From Escherichia phage VEc74: a stretch of DNA of 64,000 nucleotides. The stretch is taken from the sequence record MT932213.1; one strand, given 5' to 3'. The notes under the pieces were generated by a model. The model did not search any database, was not told where the DNA came from, and saw nothing but the letters and a program-made list of their open reading frames with translations. Below are positions 5,578-57,177 of this stretch, in pieces. The translations under genes were made by a program, and so were the position numbers. The stretch's first letter is position 1, and each line of letters starts with the position of its first letter.

Positions 5578-5850
5578 TCATTTTAAATAAATTGCGTATT
5601 TTTTATAACCCGCTGACTCATGACGAAGACCCTTATCATTAGCAAAACGCTCAATGTTGTTAATTTGATTCTGATCAAGTTCAGAGATGTCAAACACGAA
5701 AAAGTTACGTTTGTTACCAACTGTTATATAGTCAGTTAAATCAATATCATATAGGTAATTGATGTCAGCAATCAAAGTCTTGACAGCTTTGCTAATTTTT
5801 ACTTTTTCGTTAAAAGCAGCTTCAGCAATAAATTCTTGATACGTTTTCAT
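5578..5850 (-). CDS. internal-protein-like (Ip) protein, 90 aa, N-terminus MKTYQEFIAEAAF
   Basis: ORF-track 5578..5910 extends into the promoter; true ATG at 5848-5850 follows the conserved leader; N-terminus matches the T4 IPI-type targeting sequence as I recall it. Confidence 0.7.
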   Translation of the reverse strand: MKTYQEFIAEAAFNEKVKISKAVKTLIADINYLYDIDLTDYITVGNKRNFFVFDISELDQNQINNIERFANDKGLRHESAGYKKYAIYLK

Positions 5851-5878
5851 TTTATTCTCCTCAGTAGTTGATAGGATA

Positions 5879-5908
5879 ATAGTATCACTACTAAAACCCC
5901 GTGTAAAC
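5879..5908 (-). promoter_or_regulatory. T4-type early promoter
   Basis: Minus strand reads GTTTAC, 18 nt, TACTAT. Confidence 0.6.
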
Positions 5909-5920
5909 AACTTTGTGAAA

Positions 5921-6178
5921 TTATTTTAAATCTTCTAATCGTTTCTTCATCTTAGAACCGTTCTTAGCGATTTCGCCTGCATCAGAGCATAATGCTAAAA
6001 GCGCTTTAACTTTAGTTTGGTCTCCTTTAAAAGATGAAGGATCAACAGCAGCAGCAAGTTCTTTAATACGAGAGAAAAGACGCTCAGCTTCAGCTAAAGC
6101 CATTCCAAGCTTTACTTCCATACCGTGGGAAGATTCAGTAATAGTAGTTTTTGTAGCAAACTCTTTGAAAGTTTTCAT
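5921..6178 (-). CDS. internal-protein-like (Ip) protein, 85 aa, N-terminus MKTFKEFATKTTITE
   Basis: Capsid-targeting-like N-terminus; own early promoter. Confidence 0.65.
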   Translation of the reverse strand: MKTFKEFATKTTITESSHGMEVKLGMALAEAERLFSRIKELAAAVDPSSFKGDQTKVKALLALCSDAGEIAKNGSKMKKRLEDLK

Positions 6179-27069: not shown

Positions 27070-30210
<3,141 letters not shown>

Positions 30211-30238
30211 TATTAAAGCATATTAAAGAGGATTAAAA

Positions 30239-32218: not shown

Positions 32219-32226
32219 TTGATTAT

Positions 32227-32240
32227 GGGGCTTCGGCCCC
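32227..32240 (+). terminator. GC hairpin GGGGCTTCGGCCCC (UUCG tetraloop) after gene 18
   Basis: Perfect inverted repeat 9 nt after the gene 18 stop. Confidence 0.55.
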
Positions 32241-32305
32241 TATTCTCGAGGAATCAAGTGATTATTTCTAAGTTTGTTACAATAAAACCAAGAAATCATT
32301 CAAAA

Positions 32306-32863
32306 ATGTGGTCGACAATTCTGGGATATAAAGTATTATATCATGATACAGTATCTGTTCCAATAGAATTAATGCCAAAGAATAGTAATAAAATAGTTGA
32401 CGCTAAATGTGATTTATGTGGTATTAAATTTAGTAGAAGCATTCAGCTTTTAAATAGAACACCCACGCATGCATGTAGAAAATGTAGCATTAAACAAGTT
32501 GCTATTAAAAATTCGGAAGTTCAATCTGGAATAAGTAGACCATGGCAAAGAGGTGATAAACATCCTCGATGGACTGGTAAAAGAAAAGAGTTTGCATTAT
32601 ATGCTAGTAGAGTTCATTCTATAACTAAGTCAGCTAAAATAAGAAAAATCTGGTCAAAATGGCCGAATGCTGATAAAATAGGAGTGTGTGGCGTAGAAGG
32701 TGCTTACCAACTCGATCATAAAGTATCTATCAAATATGGATTTGATAATTTAATTCCGCCGGAAATTATAGCAAGCGTAAAAAATTTAGAAATAATCACT
32801 TGGGAATCTAACCGAGAAAAGTCAAAAAGAAATAGCGTAGATCTTTGGGATTTACTAGAATGA
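32306..32863 (+). CDS. HNH-family homing endonuclease inserted between genes 18 and 19, about 185 aa (start uncertain; the ORF is open from 32219)
   Basis: Motifs CDLCGIKF...ACRKC (zinc-ribbon CxxC pairs) and YQLDHKVSIKYGFDN...NLEIITWESNREKSKRN (His-Asn-His); first ATG after the hairpin taken as start. Confidence 0.7.
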   Translation: MWSTILGYKVLYHDTVSVPIELMPKNSNKIVDAKCDLCGIKFSRSIQLLNRTPTHACRKCSIKQVAIKNSEVQSGISRPWQRGDKHPRWTGKRKEFALYASRVHSITKSAKIRKIWSKWPNADKIGVCGVEGAYQLDHKVSIKYGFDNLIPPEIIASVKNLEIITWESNREKSKRNSVDLWDLLE

Positions 32864-32870
32864 TTCTAAA

Positions 32871-32888
32871 GGCCTGTTTCGGCAGGCC
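32871..32888 (+). terminator. hairpin GGCCTGTTTCGGCAGGCC after the HNH gene
   Basis: Inverted repeat read directly. Confidence 0.45.
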
Positions 32889-32889
32889 A

Positions 32890-32897
32890 TATAAATA
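32890..32897 (+). promoter_or_regulatory. late promoter TATAAATA (first of two upstream of gene 19)
   Basis: Exact consensus immediately after the hairpin. Confidence 0.55.
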
Positions 32898-32948
32898 CAC
32901 TATATCCTTAATTCTTTAATTCTATATGCCCTAGGTTAAACATAGGGA

Positions 32949-32956
32949 TATAAATA
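32949..32956 (+). promoter_or_regulatory. late promoter TATAAATA upstream of gene 19
   Basis: Exact consensus 15 nt before the ATG. Confidence 0.65.
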
Positions 32957-32970
32957 CTACAGAGGCTAAT

Positions 32971-33462
32971 ATGTTTGTAGATGATGTAACACGAGCGTTT
33001 GAATCTGGTGATTTTGCTCGACCTAACTTATTCCAAGTAGAAATTTCTTATCTTGGACAAAATTTTACGTTTCAATGTAAAGCCACTGCTTTACCAGCTG
33101 GTATTGTAGAAAAAATTCCAGTCGGATTTATGAACCGTAAAATTAACGTAGCAGGCGATCGTACATTCGATGACTGGACTGTTACAGTAATGAACGATGA
33201 AGCTCATGATGCTCGCCAGAAGTTTGTTGATTGGCAAAGCATTGCTGCGGGGCAAGGAAACGAAATTACTGGTGGAAAACCTGCAGAGTATAAAAAGAGC
33301 GCTATCGTCCGTCAATATGCTCGTGACGCTAAAACAGTAACAAAAGAAATTGAAATTAAAGGTCTGTGGCCTACTAACGTGGGTGAACTTCAATTAGATT
33401 GGGATTCAAACAATGAAATCCAAACATTTGAAGTAACTCTTGCTCTCGATTATTGGGAATAA
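32971..33462 (+). CDS. 19: tail tube protein gp19, 163 aa
   Basis: Size and position as in T4. Confidence 0.95.
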   Translation: MFVDDVTRAFESGDFARPNLFQVEISYLGQNFTFQCKATALPAGIVEKIPVGFMNRKINVAGDRTFDDWTVTVMNDEAHDARQKFVDWQSIAAGQGNEITGGKPAEYKKSAIVRQYARDAKTVTKEIEIKGLWPTNVGELQLDWDSNNEIQTFEVTLALDYWE

Positions 33463-33469
33463 AATGAAT

Positions 33470-33483
33470 GGGGAGAAATCCCC
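33470..33483 (+). terminator. hairpin GGGGAGAAATCCCC after gene 19
   Basis: Inverted repeat read directly. Confidence 0.45.
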
Positions 33484-33494
33484 ATCCTGCTTAA

Positions 33495-35119
<1,625 letters not shown>

Positions 35120-35120
<1 letters not shown>

Positions 35121-35362
35121 TGGAAGGTTTAATTGAAGCTATTAAATCAAACGACCTCGTAGCCGCTCGTAAATTATTTGCTGAAGCCATGGCTGCAAGA
35201 ACGATTGATTTAATTAAAGAAGAAAAAATCGCTATCGCTCGTAATTTCTTAATCGAAGGTGAAGAACCTGAAGACGAGGATGAAGATGATGATGACGAAG
35301 ATAGCGATGATAAAGACGACAAAAAAGACAAAGACTCTGACGAAGACGAGGATGATGAATAA
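35120..35362 (+). CDS. 67: prohead core protein gp67, 80 aa, acidic C-terminus
   Basis: Sequence [22 protein letters not shown]... and poly-Asp/Glu tail recognised. Confidence 0.9.
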
Positions 35363-35787
35363 TGCTTCTGATCCCTGAAACTCATGAATTAGTTCTCGAG
35401 AATGTCGAAGCACTTATTCCTGAAGCACAGGGTCGCTTTGACGAATTGTCTTCTGCTTTAAATAAAGACGATATAAATACAATTGTCGAGAATATGCTTG
35501 ATGATGAAACTGATTTAGCGGTTGCATTAGCTTCTATTAATGAAAATATGCCGTTAAATGAATTCATCGTTAAACATGTTTCTGCCCGTGGTGAAATTAC
35601 TCGCACTAAAGATCGCAAAACCCGCGAACGAAATGCATTTCAAACCACTGGGCTGTCTAAAGCAAAACGTAGACAAATTGCTCGTAAAGCTACCAAAACG
35701 AAGATTGCCAATCCAGCAGGTCAATCTCGTGCTCAGCGTAAGCGTAAAAAAGCTCTTAAACGCCGTAAAGCATTAGGATTAAGCTAA
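35362..35787 (+). CDS. 68: prohead core protein gp68, 141 aa
   Basis: Size and position between 67 and 21. Confidence 0.9.
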
Positions 35788-36425
35788 TGAATGAACCCCA
35801 ATTACTAATTGAAACTTGGGGTCAACCTGGCGAAATTATTGATGGCGTACCAATGCTTGAATCTCATGATGGAAAAGACTTAGGTTTAAAACCGGGTTTA
35901 TACATCGAAGGAATATTCATGCAAGCGGAAGTCGTCAATAGAAATAAACGTCTTTATCCAAAACGTATATTAGAAAAAGCGGTAAAAGACTATATTAATG
36001 AGCAAGTTTTAACTAAACAAGCTCTCGGAGAATTAAATCATCCTCCACGCGCTAATGTTGACCCGATGCAAGCCGCTATCATTATAGAAGATATGTGGTG
36101 GAAAGGAAATGACGTATACGGACGAGCTCGTGTTATTGAAGGTGACCATGGTCCTGGAGATAAATTAGCAGCTAATATTCGTGCCGGATGGATTCCAGGA
36201 GTTTCTTCTCGTGGATTAGGTTCATTGACTGACACAAATAAAGGTTATCGTATCGTAAACGAAGGATTCAAATTAACTGTAGGTGTTGATGCAGTATGGG
36301 GTCCAAGTGCTCCAGATGCATGGGTAACTCCTAAGGAAATTACCGAATCACAGACGGCGGAAGCCGATACAAGTGCCGATGACGCCTATATGGCTCTCGC
36401 AGAGGCCATGAAAAAAGCGTTATAA
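35787..36425 (+). CDS. 21: prohead core protease gp21, 212 aa
   Basis: Size and order as in T4. Confidence 0.95.
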   Translation: MNEPQLLIETWGQPGEIIDGVPMLESHDGKDLGLKPGLYIEGIFMQAEVVNRNKRLYPKRILEKAVKDYINEQVLTKQALGELNHPPRANVDPMQAAIIIEDMWWKGNDVYGRARVIEGDHGPGDKLAANIRAGWIPGVSSRGLGSLTDTNKGYRIVNEGFKLTVGVDAVWGPSAPDAWVTPKEITESQTAEADTSADDAYMALAEAMKKAL

Positions 36426-36428
36426 ATA
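36421..36428 (+). promoter_or_regulatory. late promoter TATAAATA upstream of gene 22
   Basis: Exact consensus overlapping the gene 21 stop. Confidence 0.65.
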
Positions 36429-36455
36429 TTATTATCTAAACAACAGGACTACAAA

Positions 36456-37265
36456 ATGCTTAAAGAACAACTGATTGCCGAAGCGCAGAAAATTGATGCT
36501 TCCGTTGCTCTTGATAGTATTTTCGAATCAGTTAATATTTCTCCGGAAGCAAAAGAAACTTTCGGCACTGTATTCGAAGCTACCGTCAAGCAGCACGCCG
36601 TTAAATTAGCTGAATCTCATATCGCTAAAATTGCTGAAAGGGCAGAAGAAGAAGTAGAAAAAAATAAAGAAGAAGCCGAAGAAAAAGCTGAGAAGAAAAT
36701 CGCTGAGCAAGCTTCTAAATTCATTGACCATCTTGCGAAAGAATGGCTCGCTGAAAATAAATTAGCAGTTGATAAAGGCATCAAAGCCGAACTGTTTGAA
36801 TCCATGCTTGGTGGATTAAAAGAGCTCTTTGTTGAACACAACGTTGTTGTTCCAGAAGAATCAGTTGATGTTGTGGCTGAAATGGAAGAAGAGCTGCAAG
36901 AACATAAAGAAGAATCAGCTCGTCTGTTCGAAGAACTCAATATGCGCGACGCATATATTAATTATGTGCAGCGTGAAGTGGCATTGAGCGAAAGTACTAA
37001 AGATCTGACTGAGTCTCAAAAAGAAAAAGTCTCTGCTCTGGTCGAAGGTATGGATTATTCAGATGCATTCTCAAGTAAATTGAGTGCAATCGTAGAAATG
37101 GTGAAGAAATCTAATAAAGATGAAAGCACTATTACTGAGAGTATAAATACTCCTGATACTGAAGCAGCCGGACTGAATTTCGTCACTGAAGCTGTAGAAG
37201 ATAAAGCTGCACAGGGTGCAGAAGATATTGTAAGTGTATATGCGAAAGTCGCATCTCGTTTCTAA
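36456..37265 (+). CDS. 22: prohead core scaffold protein gp22, 269 aa
   Basis: Glu/Lys-rich coiled-coil; size and order as in T4. Confidence 0.95.
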   Translation: MLKEQLIAEAQKIDASVALDSIFESVNISPEAKETFGTVFEATVKQHAVKLAESHIAKIAERAEEEVEKNKEEAEEKAEKKIAEQASKFIDHLAKEWLAENKLAVDKGIKAELFESMLGGLKELFVEHNVVVPEESVDVVAEMEEELQEHKEESARLFEELNMRDAYINYVQREVALSESTKDLTESQKEKVSALVEGMDYSDAFSSKLSAIVEMVKKSNKDESTITESINTPDTEAAGLNFVTEAVEDKAAQGAEDIVSVYAKVASRF

Positions 37266-37283
37266 TTTTAAAGGTTAACACAA

Positions 37284-38849
37284 ATGACTATCAAAACTAA
37301 AGCTGAACTTTTGAACAAATGGAAGCCATTACTGGAAGGTGAAGGTTTACCGGAAATTGCTAATAGCAAACAAGCGATTATCGCTAAAATCTTTGAAAAC
37401 CAGGAAAAAGATTTCCAGACAGCTCCGGAATATAAAGACGAAAAAATTGCTCAGGCATTCGGTTCTTTCTTAACAGAAGCTGAAATCGGCGGTGACCACG
37501 GTTACAATGCTACTAACATCGCTGCAGGTCAGACTTCTGGCGCAGTAACTCAGATTGGCCCAGCTGTTATGGGTATGGTACGTCGTGCTATTCCTAACCT
37601 GATTGCTTTCGATATTTGTGGTGTTCAGCCGATGAACAGCCCGACTGGCCAGGTATTCGCACTGCGCGCAGTATATGGTAAAGATCCGGTGGCTGCCGGT
37701 GCTAAAGAAGCATTCCACCCAATGTATGGTCCAGATGCAATGTTCTCTGGTCAGGGTGCTGCTAAGAAATTCCCAGCTCTGGCTGCTAGCACGCAAACCG
37801 TTGTAGGTGATATCTATACTCACTTCTTCCAGGAAACTGGTACCGTGTATCTGCAAGCTTCCGCTGTAGTAACAATCGATGCTGGTGCGACTGATGCTGC
37901 TAAATTAGATGTCGAAGTTAAGAAACAAATGGAAGCTGGTGTACTGGTAGAAATCGCTGAAGGTATGGCTACTTCTATCGCTGAACTCCAGGAAGGTTTC
38001 AATGGTTCTACCGATAACCCATGGAATGAAATGGGCTTCCGTATCGATAAACAAGTTATCGAAGCTAAATCTCGCCAGCTGAAAGCTGCTTACTCTATTG
38101 AATTAGCACAAGACCTCCGCGCTGTTCACGGTATGGATGCTGATGCTGAACTGTCTGGTATTCTGGCTACAGAAATTATGCTGGAAATCAACCGTGAAGT
38201 TGTTGATTGGATTAACTACTCCGCTCAGGTTGGTAAATCTGGTATGACCCTGACTCCGGGTTCTAAAGCTGGTGTATTTGACTTCCAGGACCCAATCGAT
38301 ATTCGTGGTGCTCGCTGGGCAGGTGAATCCTTTAAAGCTCTGTTGTTCCAGATTGACAAAGAAGCAGTTGAAATTGCTCGTCAGACCGGTCGTGGTGAAG
38401 GTAACTTCATTATCGCTTCCCGTAACGTAGTTAACGTTCTGGCTTCAGTTGATACCGGCATTTCTTATGCTGCACAGGGTCTGGCTACCGGATTTAACAC
38501 TGATACTACCAAGTCAGTATTTGCTGGTGTTCTGGGTGGTAAATACCGCGTATATATCGACCAGTATGCTAAACAGGATTATTTCACTGTAGGTTATAAA
38601 GGTCCGAACGAAATGGATGCTGGTATTTACTATGCTCCATATGTAGCTCTGACTCCGCTGCGTGGTTCCGATCCGAAGAACTTCCAACCGGTAATGGGAT
38701 TCAAAACTCGTTACGGTATCGGTATCAACCCATTTGCAGAATCCGCTGCTCAGGCTCCGGCTTCTCGCATCCAGAGCGGTATGCCTTCTATTCTGAATAG
38801 CCTTGGTAAAAACGCTTACTTCCGCCGTGTATATGTTAAAGGTATCTAA
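37284..38849 (+). CDS. 23: major capsid protein gp23, 521 aa
   Basis: Size, high-expression codon usage, position after gene 22. Confidence 0.97.
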   Translation: MTIKTKAELLNKWKPLLEGEGLPEIANSKQAIIAKIFENQEKDFQTAPEYKDEKIAQAFGSFLTEAEIGGDHGYNATNIAAGQTSGAVTQIGPAVMGMVRRAIPNLIAFDICGVQPMNSPTGQVFALRAVYGKDPVAAGAKEAFHPMYGPDAMFSGQGAAKKFPALAASTQTVVGDIYTHFFQETGTVYLQASAVVTIDAGATDAAKLDVEVKKQMEAGVLVEIAEGMATSIAELQEGFNGSTDNPWNEMGFRIDKQVIEAKSRQLKAAYSIELAQDLRAVHGMDADAELSGILATEIMLEINREVVDWINYSAQVGKSGMTLTPGSKAGVFDFQDPIDIRGARWAGESFKALLFQIDKEAVEIARQTGRGEGNFIIASRNVVNVLASVDTGISYAAQGLATGFNTDTTKSVFAGVLGGKYRVYIDQYAKQDYFTVGYKGPNEMDAGIYYAPYVALTPLRGSDPKNFQPVMGFKTRYGIGINPFAESAAQAPASRIQSGMPSILNSLGKNAYFRRVYVKGI

Positions 38850-38864
38850 TCTTTGACGATTTAA

Positions 38865-38892
38865 GGGACCTTCGGGTCCCTTTAGTTGTTTT
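38865..38892 (+). terminator. rho-independent terminator after gene 23
   Basis: Hairpin GGGACCTTCGGGTCCC followed by a T-rich tract. Confidence 0.75.
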
Positions 38893-38897
38893 TATGG

Positions 38898-38905
38898 TAT
38901 AAATA
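38898..38905 (+). promoter_or_regulatory. late promoter TATAAATA upstream of gene 24
   Basis: Exact consensus. Confidence 0.7.
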
Positions 38906-38932
38906 AATCATATAAACCAAAAGGAAAGCGCA

Positions 38933-40216
38933 ATGGCTAAAATCAACGAACTTCTGCGCGAATCAACCACAACGAATAGCAACTCAATCGGTCGCCCAAA
39001 TCTCGTTGCTTTGACTCGCGCTACCACTAAATTAATATATTCTGACATTGTAGCAACACAAAGAACTAATCAACCTGTTGCTGCTTTTTATGGTATCAAA
39101 TACCTTAACCCAGACAATGAATTTACATTTAAAACTGGTGCTACTTACGCTGGCGAAGCTGGATATGTAGACCGAGAACAAATCACAGAATTAACAGAAG
39201 AGTCTAAATTAACTCTCAATAAAGGCGATTTATTCAAATATAATAATATCGTTTATAAAGTATTAGAAGATACTCCATTTGCTGATATTGAAGAAAGCGA
39301 CTTAGAGTTAGCTCTTCAGATTGCAATTGTTCTTTTAAAGGTTCGTCTATTTTCTGATGCAGCATCAACAAGTAAATTTGAAAGCTCCGATAGCGAAATT
39401 GCGGATGCTAGATTCCAGATTAATAAATGGCAAACCGCAGTTAAATCTCGCAAACTTAAAACTGGTATCACAGTTGAATTAGCACAAGATTTAGAAGCAA
39501 ATGGATTCGATGCTCCTAATTTCTTGGAAGATTTGCTTGCAACTGAAATGGCAGATGAAATTAATAAAGATATTCTGCAGTCTTTGATTACAGTGTCAAA
39601 ACGCTATAAAGTTACAGGAATTACTGATAGTGGATTCATCGATTTGAGTTATGCATCTGCTCCTGAAGCTGGTCGTTCATTATACCGAATGGTATGTGAA
39701 ATGGTTTCGCATATCCAAAAAGAATCAACTTATACAGCAACGTTCTGTGTTGCTTCAGCTCGTGCTGCTGCGATTCTTGCTGCATCAGGTTGGTTAAAAC
39801 ATAAACCAGAAGATGATAAATATCTTTCACAAAATGCCTACGGGTTCTTAGCTAATGGTTTACCGCTTTATTGCGATACTAACAGCCCATTAGATTATGT
39901 AATCGTTGGCGTAGTAGAAAATATCGGTGAAAAAGAAATTGTTGGATCAATTTTCTATGCGCCATATACAGAAGGTCTCGACTTAGATGACCCTGAACAT
40001 GTAGGTGCATTTAAAGTTGTTGTTGACCCAGAAAGCTTACAACCGTCTATCGGTTTATTAGTTAGATATGCTTTATCAGCAAATCCTTATACCGTAGCAA
40101 AAGATGAAAAAGAAGCAAGAATAATTGACGGTGGAGACATGGATAAAATGGCGGGTCGTTCAGATTTGTCTGTTTTATTAGGTGTTAAATTACCAAAAAT
40201 TATTATCGATGAATAA
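38933..40216 (+). CDS. 24: capsid vertex protein gp24, 427 aa
   Basis: Size and position after gene 23; no endonuclease gene between 23 and 24 in this genome. Confidence 0.95.
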   Translation: MAKINELLRESTTTNSNSIGRPNLVALTRATTKLIYSDIVATQRTNQPVAAFYGIKYLNPDNEFTFKTGATYAGEAGYVDREQITELTEESKLTLNKGDLFKYNNIVYKVLEDTPFADIEESDLELALQIAIVLLKVRLFSDAASTSKFESSDSEIADARFQINKWQTAVKSRKLKTGITVELAQDLEANGFDAPNFLEDLLATEMADEINKDILQSLITVSKRYKVTGITDSGFIDLSYASAPEAGRSLYRMVCEMVSHIQKESTYTATFCVASARAAAILAASGWLKHKPEDDKYLSQNAYGFLANGLPLYCDTNSPLDYVIVGVVENIGEKEIVGSIFYAPYTEGLDLDDPEHVGAFKVVVDPESLQPSIGLLVRYALSANPYTVAKDEKEARIIDGGDMDKMAGRSDLSVLLGVKLPKIIIDE

Positions 40217-40221
40217 AACAA

Positions 40222-40243
40222 AGGGACCGAAAGGTCCCTTTTT
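40222..40243. terminator. bidirectional terminator between gene 24 (+) and rnlB (-)
   Basis: Hairpin GGGACCGAAAGGTCCC flanked by A-tract and T-tract. Confidence 0.75.
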
Positions 40244-40245
40244 AT

Positions 40246-41250
40246 TTAGCTCACCAACTCAATCCAAGCTGGACGAAGTACATCTTGCACCATTTTAACT
40301 AATTCCTTTTTAATCAAAGAAGGATTATCTGCTTGAGTTAGAGTAATACCTTCACGAGAAGTTTCTTCCAAAATATCTTGAACAGTTAACCCCATCACCT
40401 TTCCAAAATCCTTTGGACCAATTTCGCCAATTTTAGAAATAACGTTATTTACGCGGTTCAGTGTAACGTAACAAGCTAAAATTCCAACCAATTTGTTATC
40501 AGCTTCTGATAGCTCAACTTTAGCTTTAATAGGCTTATCAGACTTTTTCTTTTCACTAAATTTGGAATTCTTGCATTTGATGGCTACACGATTTCCATTA
40601 TGAAGCCAAGAAGGATAACACGGTTTCAATACATATCCTTCGGCAGTAAATACTTCACCTTTTGCTTCGGCATTCCAAACGCATTTATTTGCATCAACTA
40701 ATCCAGCATGGTCTACTGTAAAATTATAATCTTGGACGACAGAATCTAAATCATTTGGCAATTTAATAAGCTCTTCAAATTTACCGCGACCTAAAAGTGG
40801 AGCCATTTTAAATTTAAATGTATTACAGAATGATTCCATCATATAATCGTCGACATAAGTCACATCACCACTTTCTGTAGTGACAATAATGTCAAATACA
40901 TAAAAATCTTTATCGCCATAATCAACATTCTTCTGAATGCCAGGTCCAGCGAATTCGCCAAAGACTTGATAAGATACAACCGCTGAGGTTTCCATAATAT
41001 CTTGTACTGCTTTAATGGAATCAGCGTAATTCTTTAAAATAATTTCATACCCAAAGAAATCTTCAGCGGGAAGAATCGGTCCAGTACGTTTAGCGCAAGT
41101 TACTTTATCACGCTCAATAATCAATGAGAAATTTGTACCGTGAATCTTTTCACGAGCTACCCACTCCCCACCAGTCAATCCCAAGCTATAAAGTTTTTCA
41201 ATAAATTTAGAGTTGTAATGATTTTCAAGACTGCTATACTTTTTAAACAT
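40246..41250 (-). CDS. rnlB: RNA ligase 2 (Rnl2), 334 aa
   Basis: N-terminus [16 protein letters not shown] with nucleotidyltransferase lysine motif KIHGTN. Confidence 0.9.
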
Positions 41251-41259
41251 AATTAATCC

Positions 41260-41538
41260 TCAAAACGTAATTTCTAACCAATCACCATCACGCTGATCAC
41301 TATTGACTTTAAAGCTAAATCCTTCTTTTCTCAGCCAATCACCAATTTCTTCAGTAATCAATTTATCACGAGCAATACAATAATAACTAAAATGTGTTTT
41401 ACCTTGTTCAGCTGCTTTATTAGCAAGTTCCGAAAAATCTTTAATAAAGCACTCTAGTTTAAACTGTTTACTTTTGAATGCTTTTTCGCGTAATTGATTA
41501 GCAAAAGATTCATTTTCATAAAGATCATACTGTTCCAT
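41260..41538 (-). CDS. 24.2: hypothetical protein, 92 aa (24.2 position)
   Basis: Six-frame ORF in the T4 24.2 position. Confidence 0.5.
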   Translation of the reverse strand: MEQYDLYENESFANQLREKAFKSKQFKLECFIKDFSELANKAAEQGKTHFSYYCIARDKLITEEIGDWLRKEGFSFKVNSDQRDGDWLEITF

Positions 41539-41740
41539 TTTTCACCTTTTTATTGATATGTCTTTTTCTATAGACAACTTTTTCTCGAGTTTCAAATTTA
41601 TTCTTAGCAGTCATAGCTCGAGCCCATAATACAGCCACTTCTTTTGCCTGTAAGTTTAATTCACGAGCAATTTCAATGAATGACTTTCCAGACTCATGAA
41701 GAGTAAACACCACAACCTCAGTTCTCATAATCAATCTCAT
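41525..41740 (-). CDS. 24.3: hypothetical protein, 71 aa (24.3 position)
   Basis: Six-frame ORF in the T4 24.3 position. Confidence 0.5.
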   Translation of the reverse strand: MRLIMRTEVVVFTLHESGKSFIEIARELNLQAKEVAVLWARAMTAKNKFETREKVVYRKRHINKKVKNGTV

Positions 41741-41808
41741 GTTATCGAGTTGGTGCCATTATATACATCATTTTCTGATTGTGTTTTGTGTGCTTTCAAA
41801 ACGAAGAA

Positions 41809-41822
41809 AGGGGCCGAAGCCC
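41809..41822 (-). terminator. GC hairpin GGGGCTTCGGCCCC downstream of hoc
   Basis: Perfect inverted repeat. Confidence 0.5.
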
Positions 41823-41829
41823 CTTATGA

Positions 41830-43248
41830 TTATGGATAGGTATAGATGATACCAGTTTCTAAAGCAGTTTTATGAATGATGTATCCATTACGCGATTCTT
41901 GGACATCAACTTCTGGATAATCTTTCATCATCTTCTGAAGAGTGTAACGATGCAGGTAGTATTTACTATCTGGATCTTCAGTTTTCCAATCTTTACCTTC
42001 TTCAGTCATTTTTTGAATTTCATCCATAACCCACCAACCACACCAGATGTAAGCTGAGCTACGGTGTGGAAGAGGATGAACATAAGGTAATTCACCTTCT
42101 GGTTCTGGAGCAACTTTATCAGTTACCTGAACTTGACCTTCTGCCGTAATAGTTTTGCTATCATAATCAGCAGCAGTAACAGTTGCAGTAACTTCAATAG
42201 TTTGACTTCCAATAGATGAGGTATCAACGGTATATACATTAGTTGACCCTTCTACAGGAGAAGAATCTTTCTTCCATGAATATTCAATTTGCGCTTCTTC
42301 TGGAGCATCAGTGACATTAGCAGTAAATGTAGCCGAAGCATCTTGTTGAACGTTAATAGAAGGAGGAGTCAATGTAACCTGTGGATTCATTGTCTTCTTA
42401 TTAACCGTTAATGATACTTCATTAGAAGTAACTTCCTTTTCATTGTAATTTTCAGCAGTTACTTGAGCTACGCATTTAATTCTTTTTACTCCACTTGTAG
42501 TTGGAGTATAGTTAAATGTAGAGTTAGTTTCTCCACCAACTTGTGAATCATCTACATACCACTGATACGTAGCAGATGCTCCATCAGGTTGAGAAGCTAA
42601 GGCAGCAGTAAATTGAACTGGGGTTCCGATAACTCCCGCTGGAGGACTATCAGGAGTTACTGCCAAAGTAGTTGTCTGCTCCTTTTTATTAACAGTCAGT
42701 GATACTTCATTAGAAGTAACTTCTTTTGCATCATAATCTGTCGCGGTTACTTGAGCCACACACTTAATTGTTTTAACTCCGCTTGTGGTAGGAGTGTAAT
42801 TGAATGTAGCAGAAGTTGCTTCGCCCACAGGAGAACCGTCAACGTGCCATTGATACGTAGCAGATGCACCTGGTGGCTGCGAAGTTAAGGCAGCGGTAAA
42901 TTCAACAGCTGTTCCAATCACTCCAGCAGCAGGACTATCAGGAGTTACAGCTAAGGTGGTCGTTTGTGTCTTATTTTGAACTGTGATAGTTGTAGTAGCT
43001 TCTGCTGTTTCAGCATCAGTATCTGGGACTGGGTTTGTTGCAACTACTTTAATAGTCTTTTGACCGGCAGGTCCTTTTAGTACATAATTAAAAGTTGCTT
43101 CAGCTCCATCTTGTGGAACATCATCTACAGTCCAAGCATATGTAATAGGTCCATCTCCAGTTTGACCACTGGGTGTAGCAGTAAACTGCTGAGTCTGATC
43201 TATAACTCCAGTAGGTGTTTTAGGAGTTATATCAACTGTAAAAGCCAT
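41830..43248 (-). CDS. hoc: highly immunogenic outer capsid protein Hoc, 472 aa, with an extra Ig-like domain
   Basis: N-terminus MAFTVDITPKTPTGVIDQTQQF and C-terminus ...GIIYTYP recognised; contains two near-identical about 96-aa Ig-like repeats. Confidence 0.9.
   Translation of the reverse strand: MAFTVDITPKTPTGVIDQTQQFTATPSGQTGDGPITYAWTVDDVPQDGAEATFNYVLKGPAGQKTIKVVATNPVPDTDAETAEATTTITVQNKTQTTTLAVTPDSPAAGVIGTAVEFTAALTSQPPGASATYQWHVDGSPVGEATSATFNYTPTTSGVKTIKCVAQVTATDYDAKEVTSNEVSLTVNKKEQTTTLAVTPDSPPAGVIGTPVQFTAALASQPDGASATYQWYVDDSQVGGETNSTFNYTPTTSGVKRIKCVAQVTAENYNEKEVTSNEVSLTVNKKTMNPQVTLTPPSINVQQDASATFTANVTDAPEEAQIEYSWKKDSSPVEGSTNVYTVDTSSIGSQTIEVTATVTAADYDSKTITAEGQVQVTDKVAPEPEGELPYVHPLPHRSSAYIWCGWWVMDEIQKMTEEGKDWKTEDPDSKYYLHRYTLQKMMKDYPEVDVQESRNGYIIHKTALETGIIYTYP
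42382..42957 (-). repeat. tandem direct repeat (2 x 288 bp) encoding duplicated Ig-like domains of Hoc
   Basis: Protein segments starting TLAVTPDSPAAGVIG and TLAVTPDSPPAGVIG are roughly 85 percent identical by eye over about 96 aa. Confidence 0.8.
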
Positions 43249-43257
43249 AAGTTATCC

Positions 43258-43938
43258 TTATTTTAATGTTACGAAAGAAGAATTGCGTGTTTCACGAATT
43301 AAAACTGATCCGTCACGGTTAATGTAATAAATTAAGCTAAATAAAGTTTGGTGTGCTGACGCATGCTCAAAACTTGTTGGGTGAGATTTCCAATCCGGAG
43401 TTTCAGCGATCCATTGATAAATCCACCAAGGAACAGTGCAGAATCCTGGATTTTTTCCAATCAGCTGAAGATTCGGACTAAAGTTTTCCGGAAGAGTAAA
43501 TACAGACGGCTTTTCAGATTCAATAATCTCAGCTACAGCCTGTTCGAATTTTTCTTCAACAAAAGGAGTATCTTCAATCAAAACATCGGTATTTTCAGGA
43601 ATTTTATCCGTTTCTACTACTTCAATTTTAATGTCAGATTTAACTGGAGAATCAATCAGAAGTACTGCTTCTGGATTGACTTCTTCATCGTCATATTTTA
43701 ATCCCTCTGCGGCATCAGCAGCATCAATTAAGTCTTTAATAGATAACCCATCAGTCTCTGGCATAGGTTCACTAGCGAGCTTCTGGAGGGCTTCTTCAAT
43801 ATCAACAACGATATTATCAAAAGATTTATTCTTTTTGACCTTTATACCAAACTGTTCAGCATATTCAGCTAATTTAGCTTTAGCTTCTTTATTATCATCA
43901 AGAGCCTTCAGCTCTGCAATATAATCTTTATCTATCAT
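43258..43938 (-). CDS. inh: Inh-like prohead protease inhibitor, 226 aa
   Basis: Position between hoc and segE as in T4; size match. Confidence 0.6.
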   Translation of the reverse strand: MIDKDYIAELKALDDNKEAKAKLAEYAEQFGIKVKKNKSFDNIVVDIEEALQKLASEPMPETDGLSIKDLIDAADAAEGLKYDDEEVNPEAVLLIDSPVKSDIKIEVVETDKIPENTDVLIEDTPFVEEKFEQAVAEIIESEKPSVFTLPENFSPNLQLIGKNPGFCTVPWWIYQWIAETPDWKSHPTSFEHASAHQTLFSLIYYINRDGSVLIRETRNSSFVTLK

Positions 43939-43951
43939 AATATTTCCTCAG

Positions 43952-43959
43952 TATAAATA
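43952..43959 (+). promoter_or_regulatory. late promoter TATAAATA upstream of the GIY-YIG endonuclease gene
   Basis: Exact consensus 29 nt before the ATG. Confidence 0.55.
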
Positions 43960-43987
43960 TAGATATATTTATTACTCGGAAAATAGT

Positions 43988-44605
43988 ATGTACCACTTTG
44001 TATATGAAACAACAAATCTAATAAACGGTAAAAAGTATATAGGAAAACACTCTACTGATGACTTGAATGATGGTTACCTTGGTTCCGGTAAGGCAATTCA
44101 GCAGGCTATAAAGAAATATGGTGAAAACAATTTCTCTAGAACAATACTAAAAGAGTTTAAAACTTCCGAAGAAGCGTACATGTATGAAGAAGAAATTATA
44201 ACTCCTGAAATAATAAAAAGCAAAAATTATTATAATATGAAACCTGGTGGAATTGGTGGAATTGTTATGACTACAGAGGTTATAGCAAAGATGAAAGAAT
44301 CTTCCGCTAAGAGATTTGAAAACTCACCGGGCACGGTATTAGGTACAACTTGTTACACTAATGGAACTAAAAATATTTTTATTAAACCTGGAGAACTTGT
44401 TCCAGAAGGATTTGTAAAAGGAATGGTTCATCCTAATAGAAAGTCCAGAAAAGGATGTAAAGTCAAACCGACTACCACAGGAACTTTTTGGGTCAATAAC
44501 GGTGCAATAAATAAATTAATACAACCAGACGGTATTATTCCCGACGGATTTATTAAAGGTCGTCTCATGAAAAGAGATTCTAAAGGCAAATTTAGTAAGG
44601 CATAA
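43988..44605 (+). CDS. segE: GIY-YIG homing endonuclease (SegE-like), 205 aa
   Basis: N-terminal GIY-YIG module (HFVYETTNLINGKKYIGKHS...YLGSGK); position between inh and uvsW. Confidence 0.8.
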   Translation: MYHFVYETTNLINGKKYIGKHSTDDLNDGYLGSGKAIQQAIKKYGENNFSRTILKEFKTSEEAYMYEEEIITPEIIKSKNYYNMKPGGIGGIVMTTEVIAKMKESSAKRFENSPGTVLGTTCYTNGTKNIFIKPGELVPEGFVKGMVHPNRKSRKGCKVKPTTTGTFWVNNGAINKLIQPDGIIPDGFIKGRLMKRDSKGKFSKA

Positions 44606-44607
44606 TT

Positions 44608-46116
44608 ATGGATATTAAAGTACATTTTCACGACTTCAGCCATGTACGCATCGATTGTGAAGAGAGCACGTTCCACGAATTAAGAGATTTCTTTTCGTTT
44701 GAGGCCGATGGATATAGGTTTAATCCTCGCTTCAGATATGGCAACTGGGATGGACGAATCCGTCTTTTAGATTATAATCGTCTTCTTCCATTCGGCTTAG
44801 TCGGGCAAATTAAAAAGTTCTGTGATAATTTTGGCTATAAAGCCTGGATTGACCCGCAAATTAACGAAAAAGAAGAATTATCAAGAAAAGATTTTGATGA
44901 ATGGCTTTCTAAATTAGAAATCTATTCAGGAAATAAAAGAATTGAACCGCACTGGTATCAAAAAGATGCAGTGTTCGAAGGATTAGTTAATCGTCGTAGA
45001 ATTCTTAATCTTCCAACATCTGCAGGTAAATCTTTAATTCAAGCTTTGCTTGCGCGATATTATTTGGAAAATTATGAAGGTAAAATTCTTATCATTGTTC
45101 CAACAACTGCTCTGACAACTCAGATGGCTGATGACTTCGTTGACTATCGTTTATTCAGTCATGCAATGATAAAGAAAATTGGCGGCGGAGCATCAAAAGA
45201 TGATAAATATAAAAATGATGCACCAGTCGTTGTTGGTACATGGCAAACTGTAGTTAAACAACCAAAAGAATGGTTCTCACAGTTTGGAATGATGATGAAT
45301 GATGAATGCCATCTTGCTACAGGAAAAAGTATTTCATCTATCATATCAGGTTTAAACAACTGCATGTTTAAATTTGGTCTATCAGGTTCATTACGTGATG
45401 GCAAAGCCAATATCATGCAGTATGTTGGAATGTTTGGTGAAATATTTAAACCAGTAACGACTTCTAAATTAATGGAAGATGGACAAGTAACTGAGCTAAA
45501 AATTAATAGTATTTTTCTTCGCTATCCCGATGAGTTCACTACTAAATTAAAGGGAAAAACTTACCAAGAAGAAATAAAAATTATTACTGGGCTTAGTAAA
45601 AGAAATAAATGGATCGCTAAATTAGCTATTAAGCTTGCGCAAAAAGATGAAAACACTTTTGTCATGTTTAAACATGTATCACATGGTAAAGCTATTTTCG
45701 ATTTAATTAAAAATGAATACGATAAAGTTTATTACGTATCAGGGGAAGTTGATACCGAAACCCGCAATATAATGAAAACCTTAGCTGAAAATGGTAAAGG
45801 AATAATTATAGTAGCTAGTTATGGTGTATTTTCTACTGGTATTTCAGTTAAAAATCTGCATCACGTTGTTTTAGCGCACGGTGTTAAATCAAAAATCATT
45901 GTATTACAAACAATCGGTCGTGTATTACGTAAGCATGGTTCTAAGACAATAGCAACCGTCTGGGACCTCATAGATGATTGTGGTGTTAAGCCAAAATCTG
46001 CTAATACGAAAAAGAAATATGTTCATTTGAATTATCTTTTAAAACACGGCATTGATCGTATTCAGCGCTACGCAGATGAAAAATTTAATTACGTAATGAA
46101 AACAGTTAATTTATAA
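44608..46116 (+). CDS. uvsW: UvsW RNA-DNA and DNA-DNA helicase, 502 aa
   Basis: Helicase motifs (LPTSAGKS Walker A, DECH box); size and position as in T4. Confidence 0.95.
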   Translation: MDIKVHFHDFSHVRIDCEESTFHELRDFFSFEADGYRFNPRFRYGNWDGRIRLLDYNRLLPFGLVGQIKKFCDNFGYKAWIDPQINEKEELSRKDFDEWLSKLEIYSGNKRIEPHWYQKDAVFEGLVNRRRILNLPTSAGKSLIQALLARYYLENYEGKILIIVPTTALTTQMADDFVDYRLFSHAMIKKIGGGASKDDKYKNDAPVVVGTWQTVVKQPKEWFSQFGMMMNDECHLATGKSISSIISGLNNCMFKFGLSGSLRDGKANIMQYVGMFGEIFKPVTTSKLMEDGQVTELKINSIFLRYPDEFTTKLKGKTYQEEIKIITGLSKRNKWIAKLAIKLAQKDENTFVMFKHVSHGKAIFDLIKNEYDKVYYVSGEVDTETRNIMKTLAENGKGIIIVASYGVFSTGISVKNLHHVVLAHGVKSKIIVLQTIGRVLRKHGSKTIATVWDLIDDCGVKPKSANTKKKYVHLNYLLKHGIDRIQRYADEKFNYVMKTVNL

Positions 46117-46128
46117 GGGCTTCGGCCC
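46117..46128 (+). terminator. GC hairpin GGGCTTCGGCCC after uvsW
   Basis: Perfect inverted repeat overlapping the uvsW stop. Confidence 0.45.
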
Positions 46129-46141
46129 TTTGGAGAAAAAG

Positions 46142-46372
46142 ATGTTACTAGAATTTAAACAATTTCTTTATGAAGCTTCTATTGATGAATTTATGGGTAA
46201 AATTGCCTCTTGTCAAACATTAGAAGGTTTAGAAGAACTTGAAGCTTATTATAAGAAAAGAGTCAAAGAAACTGAATTAAAAGATACTGATGACATCTCT
46301 GTGAGAGATGCTTTGGCAGGAAAAAGAGCTGAATTAGAAGATTCAGACGATGAAGTAGAAGAAAGCTTTTAA
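46142..46372 (+). CDS. uvsW.1: UvsW.1 small acidic protein, 76 aa
   Basis: Start set at MLLEFKQFLYEASIDEF; follows uvsW. Confidence 0.7.
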   Translation: MLLEFKQFLYEASIDEFMGKIASCQTLEGLEELEAYYKKRVKETELKDTDDISVRDALAGKRAELEDSDDEVEESF

Positions 46373-46427
46373 ATTAAAAAAGGCCCAACCAAAAAGGAAG
46401 GGCCAAAACTATAGACTAAAGGTCACA

Positions 46428-46595
46428 CTATAGCAAAAGTTGTGTTTCATTTAATTGTTCTTCCGAACTTTCTGAAACTGGTAGTTCTTTAATGTAATTA
46501 TAGCAAGGCCCAGGATGTACAGGACCTTTGTCTGTTTCAACAACCAATGCAGAATCGATTGGAGTTTTACAGACAACACAAATCTTATCTGACAT
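46428..46595 (-). CDS. uvsY.-2: small CxxC protein, 55 aa (uvsY.-2 position); MSDKICVVCKTPIDSALVVETDKGPVHPGPCYNY...
   Basis: Manual translation; GGAG ribosome-binding site 7 nt before the ATG; below ORF-track cut-off. Confidence 0.5.
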   Translation of the reverse strand: MSDKICVVCKTPIDSALVVETDKGPVHPGPCYNYIKELPVSESSEEQLNETQLLL

Positions 46596-46718
46596 GATTG
46601 TCTCCTCTGAATTATATATCTATTTATAACCCCATCTTAAAACGCATTTCTTGTACACGCTTTAAACATGCTTCCATTTCTGCTAAAAGTCTAAATACTT
46701 CTTTATAATTTGTCATAT

Positions 46719-46946
46719 TTACCCCATATCTCTCATATGCATATCAATGCCCATATCTTTAGAATAAAAATATTCATCAAGATATCCGGCAAATTTTCCT
46801 TTAATATAAAGGACATCTTCACCACACGGGTGGTCGGCCAGGATACGAATATCCTGACGCTTGAGATTATACTTTTTCATTAAGAATTGAATTTCCGTTT
46901 CAAATTCTTCTTCATAATTAAAAGCATCATCAATGCTATATCTCAT
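46719..46946 (-). CDS. uvsY.-1: hypothetical protein, 75 aa (uvsY.-1 position)
   Basis: Six-frame ORF abutting uvsY. Confidence 0.65.
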   Translation of the reverse strand: MRYSIDDAFNYEEEFETEIQFLMKKYNLKRQDIRILADHPCGEDVLYIKGKFAGYLDEYFYSKDMGIDMHMRDMG

Positions 46947-47359
46947 TATTTTCCAGCCTCAAATGCTCGCATGTCTTGAATATGCTTAATAGCAAATCCA
47001 CGTGATTTAATAGCATCAAGAGCTCCGCTACAGAAATCTAATAAAATCCCCCAATACTGTAACGAGGTATCAACCTTTAAAACATCCTTATCAGCTGATA
47101 GAACTGTCTTCATTTCTGATTTCTCGTAACGATCCATACTAAATTCATCACCATCTCCTCGTCCCGAGTAGTAGTCTAATTTAGCTTTAAGAGCAACTTT
47201 TTTCTGTGCTTCAATTCTAAGCATTTCCTTTTTAATACTTGAATGCTTATTAAGCCATTTACTATATAACATCACATTATTAGCTGCTTCATATTGTAAT
47301 TTAGTCGAATCTATAAACACATCTTTCTTCAATTCTTCTTGAAGATCTTCTAATTTCAT
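46946..47359 (-). CDS. uvsY: UvsY recombination mediator protein, 137 aa
   Basis: Sequence MKLEDLQEELKKDVFIDSTKLQYEAANNVMLYSKWLNKH recognised; 137 aa. Confidence 0.95.
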   Translation of the reverse strand: MKLEDLQEELKKDVFIDSTKLQYEAANNVMLYSKWLNKHSSIKKEMLRIEAQKKVALKAKLDYYSGRGDGDEFSMDRYEKSEMKTVLSADKDVLKVDTSLQYWGILLDFCSGALDAIKSRGFAIKHIQDMRAFEAGK

Positions 47360-55119: not shown

Positions 55120-57177
55120 CTACATTTTGAACTTTTTAGACATTCCGTTGATGTTAACCAAAGAAGCTAAGATTTGAGAAACTTCGTTTTCCTCTTCTTT
55201 TGATTCTTCTACAAGGAATTGATTAAATCCAACCATTGGACGAACTTCACCAGTTTCCATTAGATGGTCGCCATCATATACTGATTCTTCTAATTGTTCA
55301 GAAGGAGGAACGATTGTACCTTCGATTAGATACTTGTTATAAGCCGTTTCTTTCATAAAGTACGTACTTACTTTATTAATCTTCAGTAAAATTCCACGAG
55401 GTAGAATAACTTCAGCTTCTGATGGAAATCCTGATAAATGACCTGGAACGATAACTTTGATTCGCTCAGCTCCTTTAATTACCATACCCACGCTAGTTTC
55501 AGCATCTTCATTGGCATATGTAGAATGACTACCCATATGCATCAAATGTTCTGCATCAACGGAACCTTCTCCTTCACCAGAAAATACTGCGCCGGAATCA
55601 TCTAGAGCCATATAGTTTTTACCATGCTCACCGAAGATATTTGGTTTAAGCGATGTCGATACGAAGTTCTTGAAATAGAACATTTTGTTTTCAATGTTAT
55701 GACGCAAAGTTTTAAAGGTAACTTCTTGTCCACGGTAAAGTGTAGTTCCTGGAGGAAGAACTGAACCTTTAGCGAATGCAGAATCCAACGTCTCGATGTG
55801 CTTAATAGCTCGTTCCATATATTCTTCACGGGTAGAATCTGGTTTACCCAAAAGGAACGAGTTCATTTCAACATATGAATCTGCACAATAATCTTCAATT
55901 ACATCAGACTCAGCCTGAGTCAGTCCTTTTGGAGTTACTTCAGTACTTGCATATTCATATGCCTGAGCAGCAGATTCATTAATCAATTTATAAATGCCAT
56001 TCATGACAAATTGAATAATAGCTGTCTTTTCATCTGGCGTAGCATTAGAACCTTTAACCAAATCATTGATAATTTTCTTAATAACATCAAAGCTATTAGA
56101 AATATTAATGTCAGCAAGATCGCTTAAAATTTTATCAGTTTTATAATCAAAGAATTCTTTATTCTTTAAATATTCTTGAGAACCTTGATATGTTATATCG
56201 CTTTGCAACTTGATAGATGGATCACGTAAACGTGCATGGGCTAATGCAATATGATTTCGGAAGTTTTCTAGTTCATAATCGCTAGATTTAAAACGAGAAG
56301 CACTTCTCATACCACCAATAGCTCCTTTGTTGAAGTTTGAACCAATCTGAATAACGCCAGAGTTCATTGGTCCTTCTGCTTTATATACCGGAACTTTAGA
56401 TTCAAACTCTTGATATTTCTTAGCAGCGAAGCTATCACCCTGAAGTGAAGCATCAACAGTAGAATATTGAGCTTGTGCTGCTAATCGACGACTAATTTTA
56501 GTTTTCTGAATAACAGCTTGATCCGTGCGCTTATCATTTTCTAAAGCAATAGAAGCAGCAACAGCGACAGCTTTAGGAACAGCATTACCTGTTTTAACGT
56601 CTACATAAACATCACCGACCTTTGATTCAACTTTTGTGAATAACTCAGTTGAAATAGGAGGTACACCTGGAATGTCTTCTAAATTGGCATTTTTACGGTA
56701 AACCATAATATATGCGTACTTTTTATCATAGTCCCAGATTTCCTTTAAAAGAACATATCGACCTGCTCCTTTAGTACGTACTAAACGGTCAGCAATAACT
56801 TGCATTTGACGAGCTGCGCCATTTGTTTTACTTTTTAGTACGCGGAATAAGCATGCGTCGATTTTATACTGCTTCATTGTTTGAAGAGCAGTATCAAAAA
56901 CCGCATTAATGACGCCAATTGGATTTCCACCCAAGTTTCTAAGCTTAACCAGCGATAATTTCTCGTTGACGCCTATCATTACGATATGCATCATTTTGTC
57001 GCCTGGCTTAACGTTTTTATTTGTATCACCGCCAGAGGTGTATGTACAAAATCTAAATCCAGGAAGCACACTTTCTTCGCCGGCTTGAATAGCAAAAATT
57101 TGTGGTATTTTATGCTTAGGATTTAAGTTAACAACCGGCGCCGAAGCGCCGTCAAATAATTCTGTAATAAGTTCCAT
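55120..57177 (-). CDS. Alt-family ADP-ribosyltransferase paralogue, 685 aa
   Basis: N-terminus MELITELFDGASAPVVNLNPKHKIPQIF parallels the adjacent copy; C-terminal R-S-ExE signature (YRGQE, FVSTSL, SEAEVILPRG). Confidence 0.85.
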   Translation of the reverse strand: MELITELFDGASAPVVNLNPKHKIPQIFAIQAGEESVLPGFRFCTYTSGGDTNKNVKPGDKMMHIVMIGVNEKLSLVKLRNLGGNPIGVINAVFDTALQTMKQYKIDACLFRVLKSKTNGAARQMQVIADRLVRTKGAGRYVLLKEIWDYDKKYAYIMVYRKNANLEDIPGVPPISTELFTKVESKVGDVYVDVKTGNAVPKAVAVAASIALENDKRTDQAVIQKTKISRRLAAQAQYSTVDASLQGDSFAAKKYQEFESKVPVYKAEGPMNSGVIQIGSNFNKGAIGGMRSASRFKSSDYELENFRNHIALAHARLRDPSIKLQSDITYQGSQEYLKNKEFFDYKTDKILSDLADINISNSFDVIKKIINDLVKGSNATPDEKTAIIQFVMNGIYKLINESAAQAYEYASTEVTPKGLTQAESDVIEDYCADSYVEMNSFLLGKPDSTREEYMERAIKHIETLDSAFAKGSVLPPGTTLYRGQEVTFKTLRHNIENKMFYFKNFVSTSLKPNIFGEHGKNYMALDDSGAVFSGEGEGSVDAEHLMHMGSHSTYANEDAETSVGMVIKGAERIKVIVPGHLSGFPSEAEVILPRGILLKINKVSTYFMKETAYNKYLIEGTIVPPSEQLEESVYDGDHLMETGEVRPMVGFNQFLVEESKEEENEVSQILASLVNINGMSKKFKM

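Follow-up and report, generated by a model that had tools for sequence, protein, structure and literature searches.

A T4-type segE gene in the canonical inh/uvsW slot and a segD-free gene 23–24 junction in Escherichia phage VEc74

The open reading frame at positions 43988–44605 of the DNA analysed here is almost certainly a T4-type segE in its canonical slot, lying behind a late promoter resident at that site, and the spacer between genes 23 and 24 of the same genome represents, with the same near-certainty, the segD-free state common among relatives of T4. The analysis covered 64,000 nt of Escherichia phage VEc74 (MT932213.1), referred to below as the window; coordinates are window positions unless assigned to T4. 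A blastn comparison of the whole window with T4 (MT984581.1, 64–136 kb) showed that T4 68984–130228 (about 69.0–130.2 kb) is colinear with it, apart from a handful of indels. The identity and position of segE, its promoter motif, its distribution in the phage population and the pattern of divergence in its flanks were all read directly from the data presented here.

A 3-kb query around segE matched 802 phage records, nearly all from T4-type phages of enterobacteria. This region is 98.3% identical to T4, and the best matches were slur07 and Aplg8 (98.8%). Together with SHFML-26, these two phages are the closest known systems for the segE locus alone. Over a 17-kb stretch (30000–47000), phages in the database reach at most about 97% identity, and the window is therefore, as judged from these alignments, a new mosaic combining Tequatrovirus modules already described. 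Escherichia phage vB_EcoM_NBG2 (MH243439.1) aligns with this stretch in one piece, at 96.7% identity, and has the same layout from gene 17 to uvsY: gene 18, an extra ORF and gene 19, followed further on by gene 23, a terminator and gene 24, and then by a 472-aa hoc, inh, a homing endonuclease gene and uvsW.

The sequence-only reading had proposed a SegE-like GIY-YIG gene between inh and uvsW, and profile searches and reference comparisons bear this out. The 205-aa ORF (43988–44605, plus strand) scored 37.6 bits against the Pfam family SegE_GIY-YIG (PF19835; cut-off 25, E=3e-9) and matched phrog_314, annotated as ‘homing endonuclease’, with E=9e-44. Its score against the general Pfam GIY-YIG profile (PF01541) was 20.9 bits, just under the cut-off of 22.6; T4 SegE would obtain much the same score, as it differs at only three residues. 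The two proteins are of equal length and identical at 202 of 205 residues (98.5%; tblastn E=1e-136), the three substitutions (L75I, D97E and K120T) being all conservative. At the DNA level, the gene is 98.4% identical to that of T4 in a gap-free alignment of the region. Seven of the ten nucleotide differences are synonymous, which suggests that segE is under purifying selection. The two copies differ by three conservative substitutions and seven silent changes, none of which points to a difference in function; the substitutions might shift target preference, but nothing suggests that they do. The N-terminus of SegE also resembles those of T4 SegB, SegC and SegD (33–50% identity, E about 1e-20), and phages SHFML-26 and PYPS2T carry a 100% identical segE.

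The surroundings of the gene are equally T4-like. To its left lies inh, encoding the inhibitor of the prohead protease (43258–43938, minus strand), recognized by its position and by a length matching that of T4 inh. To its right lies the helicase gene uvsW (44608–46116, plus strand), whose product matched the Pfam families UvsW_N (E=8e-44), ResIII and Helicase_C. The order inh (−), segE (+), uvsW (+) is that of T4, and segE is free-standing rather than intron-borne. The 88 nt preceding the segE ATG are identical in the two phages. The segE stop codon is separated from the uvsW ATG by 2 nt, again as in T4, and the uvsW Shine–Dalgarno sequence AAGG is contained within the last segE codons. Reviewing the T-even endonucleases, Edgell, Gibb and Belfort (2010, PMC2988022) describe segE as a mobile gene inserted between inh and uvsW, with uvsW as its target. 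The initial reading counted the inh/uvsW gene among the departures of this genome from T4, as though it had been acquired where T4 has an unoccupied site. No tool result favoured that view, which went back to an uncertainty about where the seg genes of T4 are located, and its probability is now practically nil: in T4 records, the segE annotation stands at precisely this place, the window copy and its upstream spacer match those of T4 as described above, and the table in PMC2988022 gives the same insertion site. Comparison with the T4 reference thus refutes segE as a difference between the two phages.

The exact octamer TATAAATA, the T4 late-promoter consensus, is found on the plus strand at 43952–43959, within the 88 nt shared with T4 and 28 nt before the segE ATG in both phages. 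As a class, this motif is enriched in the window, with 21 sites against 10.0±3.1 expected, a number that none of 100 shuffled sequences reached. In phage fPS-2, the octamer at the equivalent position is annotated as a ‘predicted late promoter’; the T4 record AF158101 has no promoter features annotated around this region. The canonical octamer in front of the endonuclease gene had been correctly identified beforehand, but its description as the gene’s own late promoter is misleading. We inspected two empty junctions for the motif and for the insertion boundary, those of the segE-free phages PP01 and UFV10. Their alignment with the window showed that they share the 5' end of inh, the spacer, TATAAATA and the next 18 nt, which are followed by 11 diverged nucleotides and then by the uvsW ATG. 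Since these phages carry the identical motif directly before uvsW without any segE, TATAAATA at 43952–43959 is best described as a predicted late promoter resident in the inh/uvsW intergenic region, with segE placed between it and uvsW.

An origin of the motif within a mobile segE cassette, with the endonuclease bringing its own promoter along on homing, would agree with the absence of any gene between the octamer and the segE ATG, and endonuclease-specific promoters in upstream non-coding regions are indeed described (PMC2988022). We regard it as highly improbable given the PP01 and UFV10 junctions, in which the shared sequence extends past the motif and divergence starts only beyond the following 18 nt, so that the insertion boundary should lie downstream of the promoter. 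A resident promoter also fits the remarks in PMC2988022 that seg insertions occupy existing transcription units and that the promoter of segE lies in the upstream non-coding region. Within the same spacer, we read from the sequence a near-consensus octamer, AATAAATA, on the minus strand at 43966–43973. This octamer precedes the inh ATG by 27 nt and is divergent from the promoter on the segE side, making it a candidate late promoter of inh/hoc. According to Edgell et al. (2010, PMC2988022), inh has a late promoter upstream of it, at a distance of about 4.8 kb from segD; that promoter would, we infer, fall in the inh/segE spacer, and AATAAATA is a candidate for it.

To describe the distribution of the insertion, we joined the two segE flanks into a single junction query, which found 500 records, and read the state of the junction in the 60 matches listed. 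The flanks were at least 95% identical to those of the window in 157 of the 500 records and 90–95% identical in 342. Among the matches listed, junctions containing segE aligned in two pieces, with a span of 1,318 nt in the record (1,315 in one) and a flank identity of 97.3–99.3%, whereas empty junctions aligned in one piece spanning 702 nt, with a flank identity of 90.7–94.2%. All segE carriers among these 60 matches belonged to the group with at least 95% flank identity and all empty junctions to the 90–95% group. The gene itself was found at 95% identity or more in 158 records. Hence, segE is a presence/absence polymorphism among close relatives, and flank identity is tightly linked to the gene.

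The divergence between carriers and empty alleles is concentrated at the start of uvsW. Relative to PP01 and UFV10, the first 100–150 nt of this gene accumulate 9–15 mismatches per 50 nt, almost entirely synonymous, while the count drops to 0–3 per 50 nt deeper in uvsW and, on the inh side, within the first ~250 nt. Further into inh, counts range from 0 to 4 per 50 nt, with one 50-nt block of 8 mismatches in UFV10. The UvsW protein is almost unchanged between the window and the empty alleles. From these mismatch counts, we delimited a diverged zone at 44614–44760 (plus strand), presumed to comprise the target site and the co-conversion zone. In the segE-free junctions of PP01 and UFV10, uvsW follows straight after the promoter and has one extra codon, the protein starting with MTD instead of the MD of the window. 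The UFV10 sequence turns window-type about 100 nt into uvsW, a switch that looks like a recombination boundary.

In T4, SegE promotes almost 100% efficient homing of its gene into RB30, with co-conversion of the flanks (PMC2330249), and in RB30 and RB52 its cut falls in the junction lacking segE or in uvsW (PMC2330249, PMC2988022). The cut site differs slightly by source, being given as ‘uvsW’ in PMC2988022 and as the intergenic stretch between hoc.1 (inh) and uvsW in PMC2330249. The linkage of flank identity to segE and the divergence at the start of uvsW are, at the level of sequence comparison, the pattern expected from this published work. The segE-free junctions of T-even phages, those of PP01 and UFV10 as well as those of RB30 and RB52 in the literature, are presumed to be SegE substrates.

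By analogy with T4, from whose published study cleavage, homing and promoter activity are extrapolated to the window copy, the locus may work as follows. Since it lies between the resident promoter TATAAATA and the start of uvsW, segE is probably co-transcribed with uvsW at late times, and its final codons would supply the ribosome-binding site of the helicase gene. In a mixed infection, SegE would cleave the genome of a relative, either at an inh/uvsW junction that lacks segE or at the uvsW 5' end. Repair of the break would then copy segE into that genome together with the neighbouring start of uvsW, which is recoded by synonymous changes. The recoded start is presumed to shield the carrier from its own SegE, and self-protection of this kind is what we infer from the divergence at this site.

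The location of the uvsW Shine–Dalgarno sequence within segE also lends itself to another reading, in which segE, as a decaying or domesticated relic, would have lost the ability to home and persist solely for the ribosome-binding site of uvsW, and possibly for promoters; promoters for downstream genes embedded in segE are indeed said to favour its retention (PMC2988022). This is very unlikely, as the ORF is full length, differs by three conservative changes from a biochemically active T4 enzyme and shows a predominance of synonymous substitutions (7 out of 10). Moreover, copies at least 95% identical are present in about 158 records, and the linkage of carrier flanks to the gene is that expected under ongoing homing. 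A segE resembling the active T4 gene, in its canonical slot, remains the preferred interpretation, and no result speaks against its identification as segE.

The second locus considered is the junction of genes 23 (37284–38849) and 24 (38933–40216). It had been described as containing only a terminator and a late promoter, with segD named as the occupant of this place in T4, and both statements hold. The spacer measures 83 nt (38850–38932) and is too short to leave room for a gene. A terminator scan detected an intrinsic-terminator-type element on the plus strand at 38863–38892, composed of the hairpin AAGGGACC TTCG GGTCCCTT (38863–38882) and a T-rich tail. The hairpin has an 8-pair stem with five G–C pairs and a TTCG loop, and its RNA fold has an energy of −23.3 kcal/mol (z=−3.2). 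NBG2 has a ‘terminator’ annotated at the equivalent place after gene 23, and T4 an analogous hairpin, GGGAACC TTCG GGTTCCC. The late-promoter motif TATAAATA follows at 38898–38905 (plus strand), 27 nt before the gene 24 ATG; in T4, the motif has a corresponding position relative to gene 24, downstream of the inserted segD. The T4 annotation puts segD on the minus strand in the interval from gene 23 to gene 24, and PMC2988022 likewise lists segD at 23/24. This 672-nt antisense gene is gone altogether from the window, where blastn showed that 788 nt of T4 (106490–107277) are replaced by 38861–38920. A tblastn search of the window with T4 SegD matched only the paralogous N-terminus of segE and found no segD.

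The best 25 matches to the window junction each aligned as one uninterrupted 801-nt piece. The 567 records covering at least 80% of the 23–24 query include segD carriers, as pieces up to 900 nt apart were joined, and do not amount to a tally of empty sites; the frequency of segD was taken from searches with the gene itself. At 95% identity or more, segD was found in 55 records. A segD-free 23–24 junction is thus, on these alignments, the common and majority state of T4 relatives, and a genome that has segE but lacks segD is commonplace. According to the title of a 2018 study by Sokolov et al., cited in PMC10448857, the homing of segD is not promoted by SegD itself, which is consistent with the rarity of segD. 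It might be asked whether this lineage recently lost segD by deletion instead of having a site that was never invaded: the flanks of T4 and the window are shared up to the terminator and again beginning 12 nt ahead of the ATG of gene 24, and T6, a close relative with which the window shares ORF19.1 and segE, has segD. Such a deletion is unlikely, since the 60 nt between the shared flanks align with neither end of the T4 insert and hold no remnants of segD, but are identical to the NBG2 spacer, a spacer type present in many segD-free phages. The small number of segD records and the Sokolov et al. title likewise argue against a deletion and favour a junction of the common, segD-free type.

In the segment matching the window, T4 has four genes of this kind: segB, segC, segD and segE. 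At the Arg/Ile place of the tRNA cluster, where T4 carries segB, the window has tRNA-Asn and tRNA-Tyr instead (2084–2249, minus strand; ARAGORN). T4 71197–71992 is replaced there by 2050–2314, and tblastn with T4 SegB found no orthologue. At the place of the T4 tRNA-Gln, 2762–3379 replaces T4 72439–72502, and an ORF on the minus strand (2765–3397) matched phrog_14736, ‘HNH endonuclease’, with E=6e-124. It matched 10 further HNH phrogs and, weakly, the Pfam HNH family (17.3 bits, cut-off 21.4, E=0.005), while an ARAGORN search of the window for tRNA-Gln found none. The HNH gene likewise takes this place in phages teqhad and phiD1, both of which have it annotated as ‘HNH endonuclease’. Genes 5.1 and 5.4 abut directly in the window, gp5.1 ending at 12502 and gp5.4 starting at 12503, without segC or 5.3; T4 80196–80755 has no counterpart, and tblastn found no SegC orthologue. 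Between genes 18 and 19, where T4 has a 116-nt spacer, the window has an ORF19.1-type gene (32258–32863), and at inh/uvsW both phages have segE. Searches of the window for hidden GIY-YIG genes, using tblastn with T4 SegB, SegC, SegD and SegE, returned segE only. A weak tblastn match inside gene 6 (13615–13764, E=0.1) was dismissed as chance.

As far as these comparisons go, the endonuclease inventory of the window comprises segE, one HNH gene and one ORF19.1-type gene, with segB, segC and segD absent. The comparison with the T4 inventory that the sequence-only reading had called for shows that the content of the two phages is not identical, three seg genes being missing and two further ORFs present. 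Its claim of differences at two or more loci is correct overall. The segE locus is not one of them, and only the 23–24 junction differs among the two loci cited; the claim is true because of loci that were not mentioned, namely the absence of segB and segC and the extra ORFs at 2765–3397 and 32258–32863.

The ORF at 32258–32863 (plus strand) encodes 201 aa and forms part of a 643-nt insertion relative to T4, from which it is absent. Its product is 98.5% identical to ORF19.1 of T6 and belongs to phrog_5104, of unknown function. Homologues with at least 95% amino-acid identity were found in 69 records and more distant versions in a further 173, and the family is annotated as hypothetical almost everywhere. 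In two alignments, of 9 and 42 homologues, residues C54, D153-H154, N176 and N185 are invariant; C51 and C73 do not vary among the 9 homologues, and C51, C73 and C76 are almost invariant among the 42. An alignment-based AF2 model reached a pLDDT of 89.4, whereas a single-sequence model reached only 30. In the former, a beta-beta-alpha arrangement surrounds the motif, with strands at 150–154 and 177–181 and a helix at 182–190. The protein had no match in Pfam (E≤10) or NCBIfam, and one of the nine homologues matched Pfam HNH_4 (E=0.004). Searching the PDB with the model by Foldseek retrieved no solved structure (best E=0.67), and profile searches of PDB sequences gave weak zinc-finger matches only. 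Neighbours in BFVD are named HNH endonuclease, endonuclease-like or homing endonuclease, at TM-scores of only 0.35–0.45.

The conserved residues and the predicted fold make it plausible that this ORF encodes a free-standing endonuclease combining a zinc finger with an HNH-like domain. Alleles only about 50% identical are found in phages whose tail genes are very similar apart from this ORF, for example in RB7 and sb3, which suggests horizontal replacement. We tentatively propose, at somewhat less than even odds, that ORF19.1 represents an uncharacterised family of zinc-finger and HNH-like homing endonucleases targeting the junction between the tail sheath and tail tube genes of T4-type phages. 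If this were true, the window phage would, compared with T4, have acquired homing endonucleases in addition to losing some.

Taken as a whole, the finding is real but ordinary: a T4 segE in its canonical slot next to a segD-free junction of the majority type. That T-even phages vary in their seg and mob genes, and that T4 is the outlier rich in endonucleases, has been on record for decades (PMC2988022), and the window adds one more example, with little weight beyond annotation. It is useful in providing a correct endonuclease inventory for this genome segment. It also offers a clean illustration of a segE that follows a late promoter already present at the site and adjoins a part of uvsW recoded by synonymous changes, and this arrangement of promoter, segE and uvsW is the textbook mark of homing without introns and of marker exclusion.

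A near-consensus late-promoter motif, AATAAATA, lies on the minus strand at 43966-43973, preceding the ATG of inh by 27 nt, and the 49-nt spacer separating inh from the GIY-YIG gene segE may therefore hold a divergent pair of late promoters. In phage UFV10, whose inh/uvsW junction lacks segE, the uvsW sequence changes from the segE-free ('empty-type') to the segE-type form approximately 100 nt into the gene, as observed when positions 652-800 of the UFV10 sequence (L005) were compared with 44608-44760 of the window. This switch resembles a boundary of recombination or co-conversion, located near the presumed SegE target.

The window also differs from T4 in other seg genes. It lacks segB, with tRNA-Asn and tRNA-Tyr (2050-2314) found instead, as well as segC and 5.3, so that gene 5.1 directly abuts gene 5.4 (12502/12503). 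The tRNA set comprises Arg, Asn, Tyr, Ile(CAU), Thr, Ser, Pro, Gly and Leu, the tRNA-Ile(CAU) being labelled Met by ARAGORN. tRNA-Gln is missing from the window, and its place in T4 is taken here by an HNH endonuclease gene (2765-3397, minus strand) that adjoins tRNA-Leu, in the same arrangement as in phages teqhad and phiD1. Just past the tRNA cluster, an insertion of approximately 520 nt relative to T4 contains a 174-aa ORF (3473-3997, minus strand), which belongs to phrog_2290, a phrog without a function label, and is annotated as hypothetical in teqhad.

In the window, a 201-aa ORF with a GTG start (32258-32863, plus strand) separates the tail sheath gene 18 from the tail tube gene 19; the corresponding interval in T4 is just a spacer of 116 nt. 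It was assigned to the T6 'ORF19.1' family (phrog_5104, likewise lacking a function label). Conserved Cys residues are present and a DH...N...N motif is invariant; the ORF is probably an HNH-like free-standing endonuclease, albeit an unproven one. A hairpin is present 3' of gene 18, near this ORF, and on its other flank gene 19 is preceded by two TATAAATA late-promoter motif sites.

Other differences concern alt, hoc and the internal protein genes. While T4 carries one alt gene and the degenerate duplicates alt.-1, alt.-2 and alt.-3, the window contains a tandem pair of full-length alt-like ORFs on the minus strand (55120-57177, 685 aa; 57181-59271, 696 aa). The hoc product (41830-43248, minus strand) has 472 aa, compared with 376 aa in T4; blastn revealed an internal repeat of approximately 300 nt, corresponding to one additional Ig-like domain, and NBG2 hoc is of the same long form. 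Finally, four small ORFs of 74-110 aa (4916-6178, minus strand) stand where T4 has a single ipI gene. All four contain MKT(F/Y/S)(K/Q)EF, N-terminally in three and downstream of a TTG start in the fourth (5578-5910), and this looks like a capsid-targeting sequence. With these ORFs in place of ipI, the internal protein set is variable.
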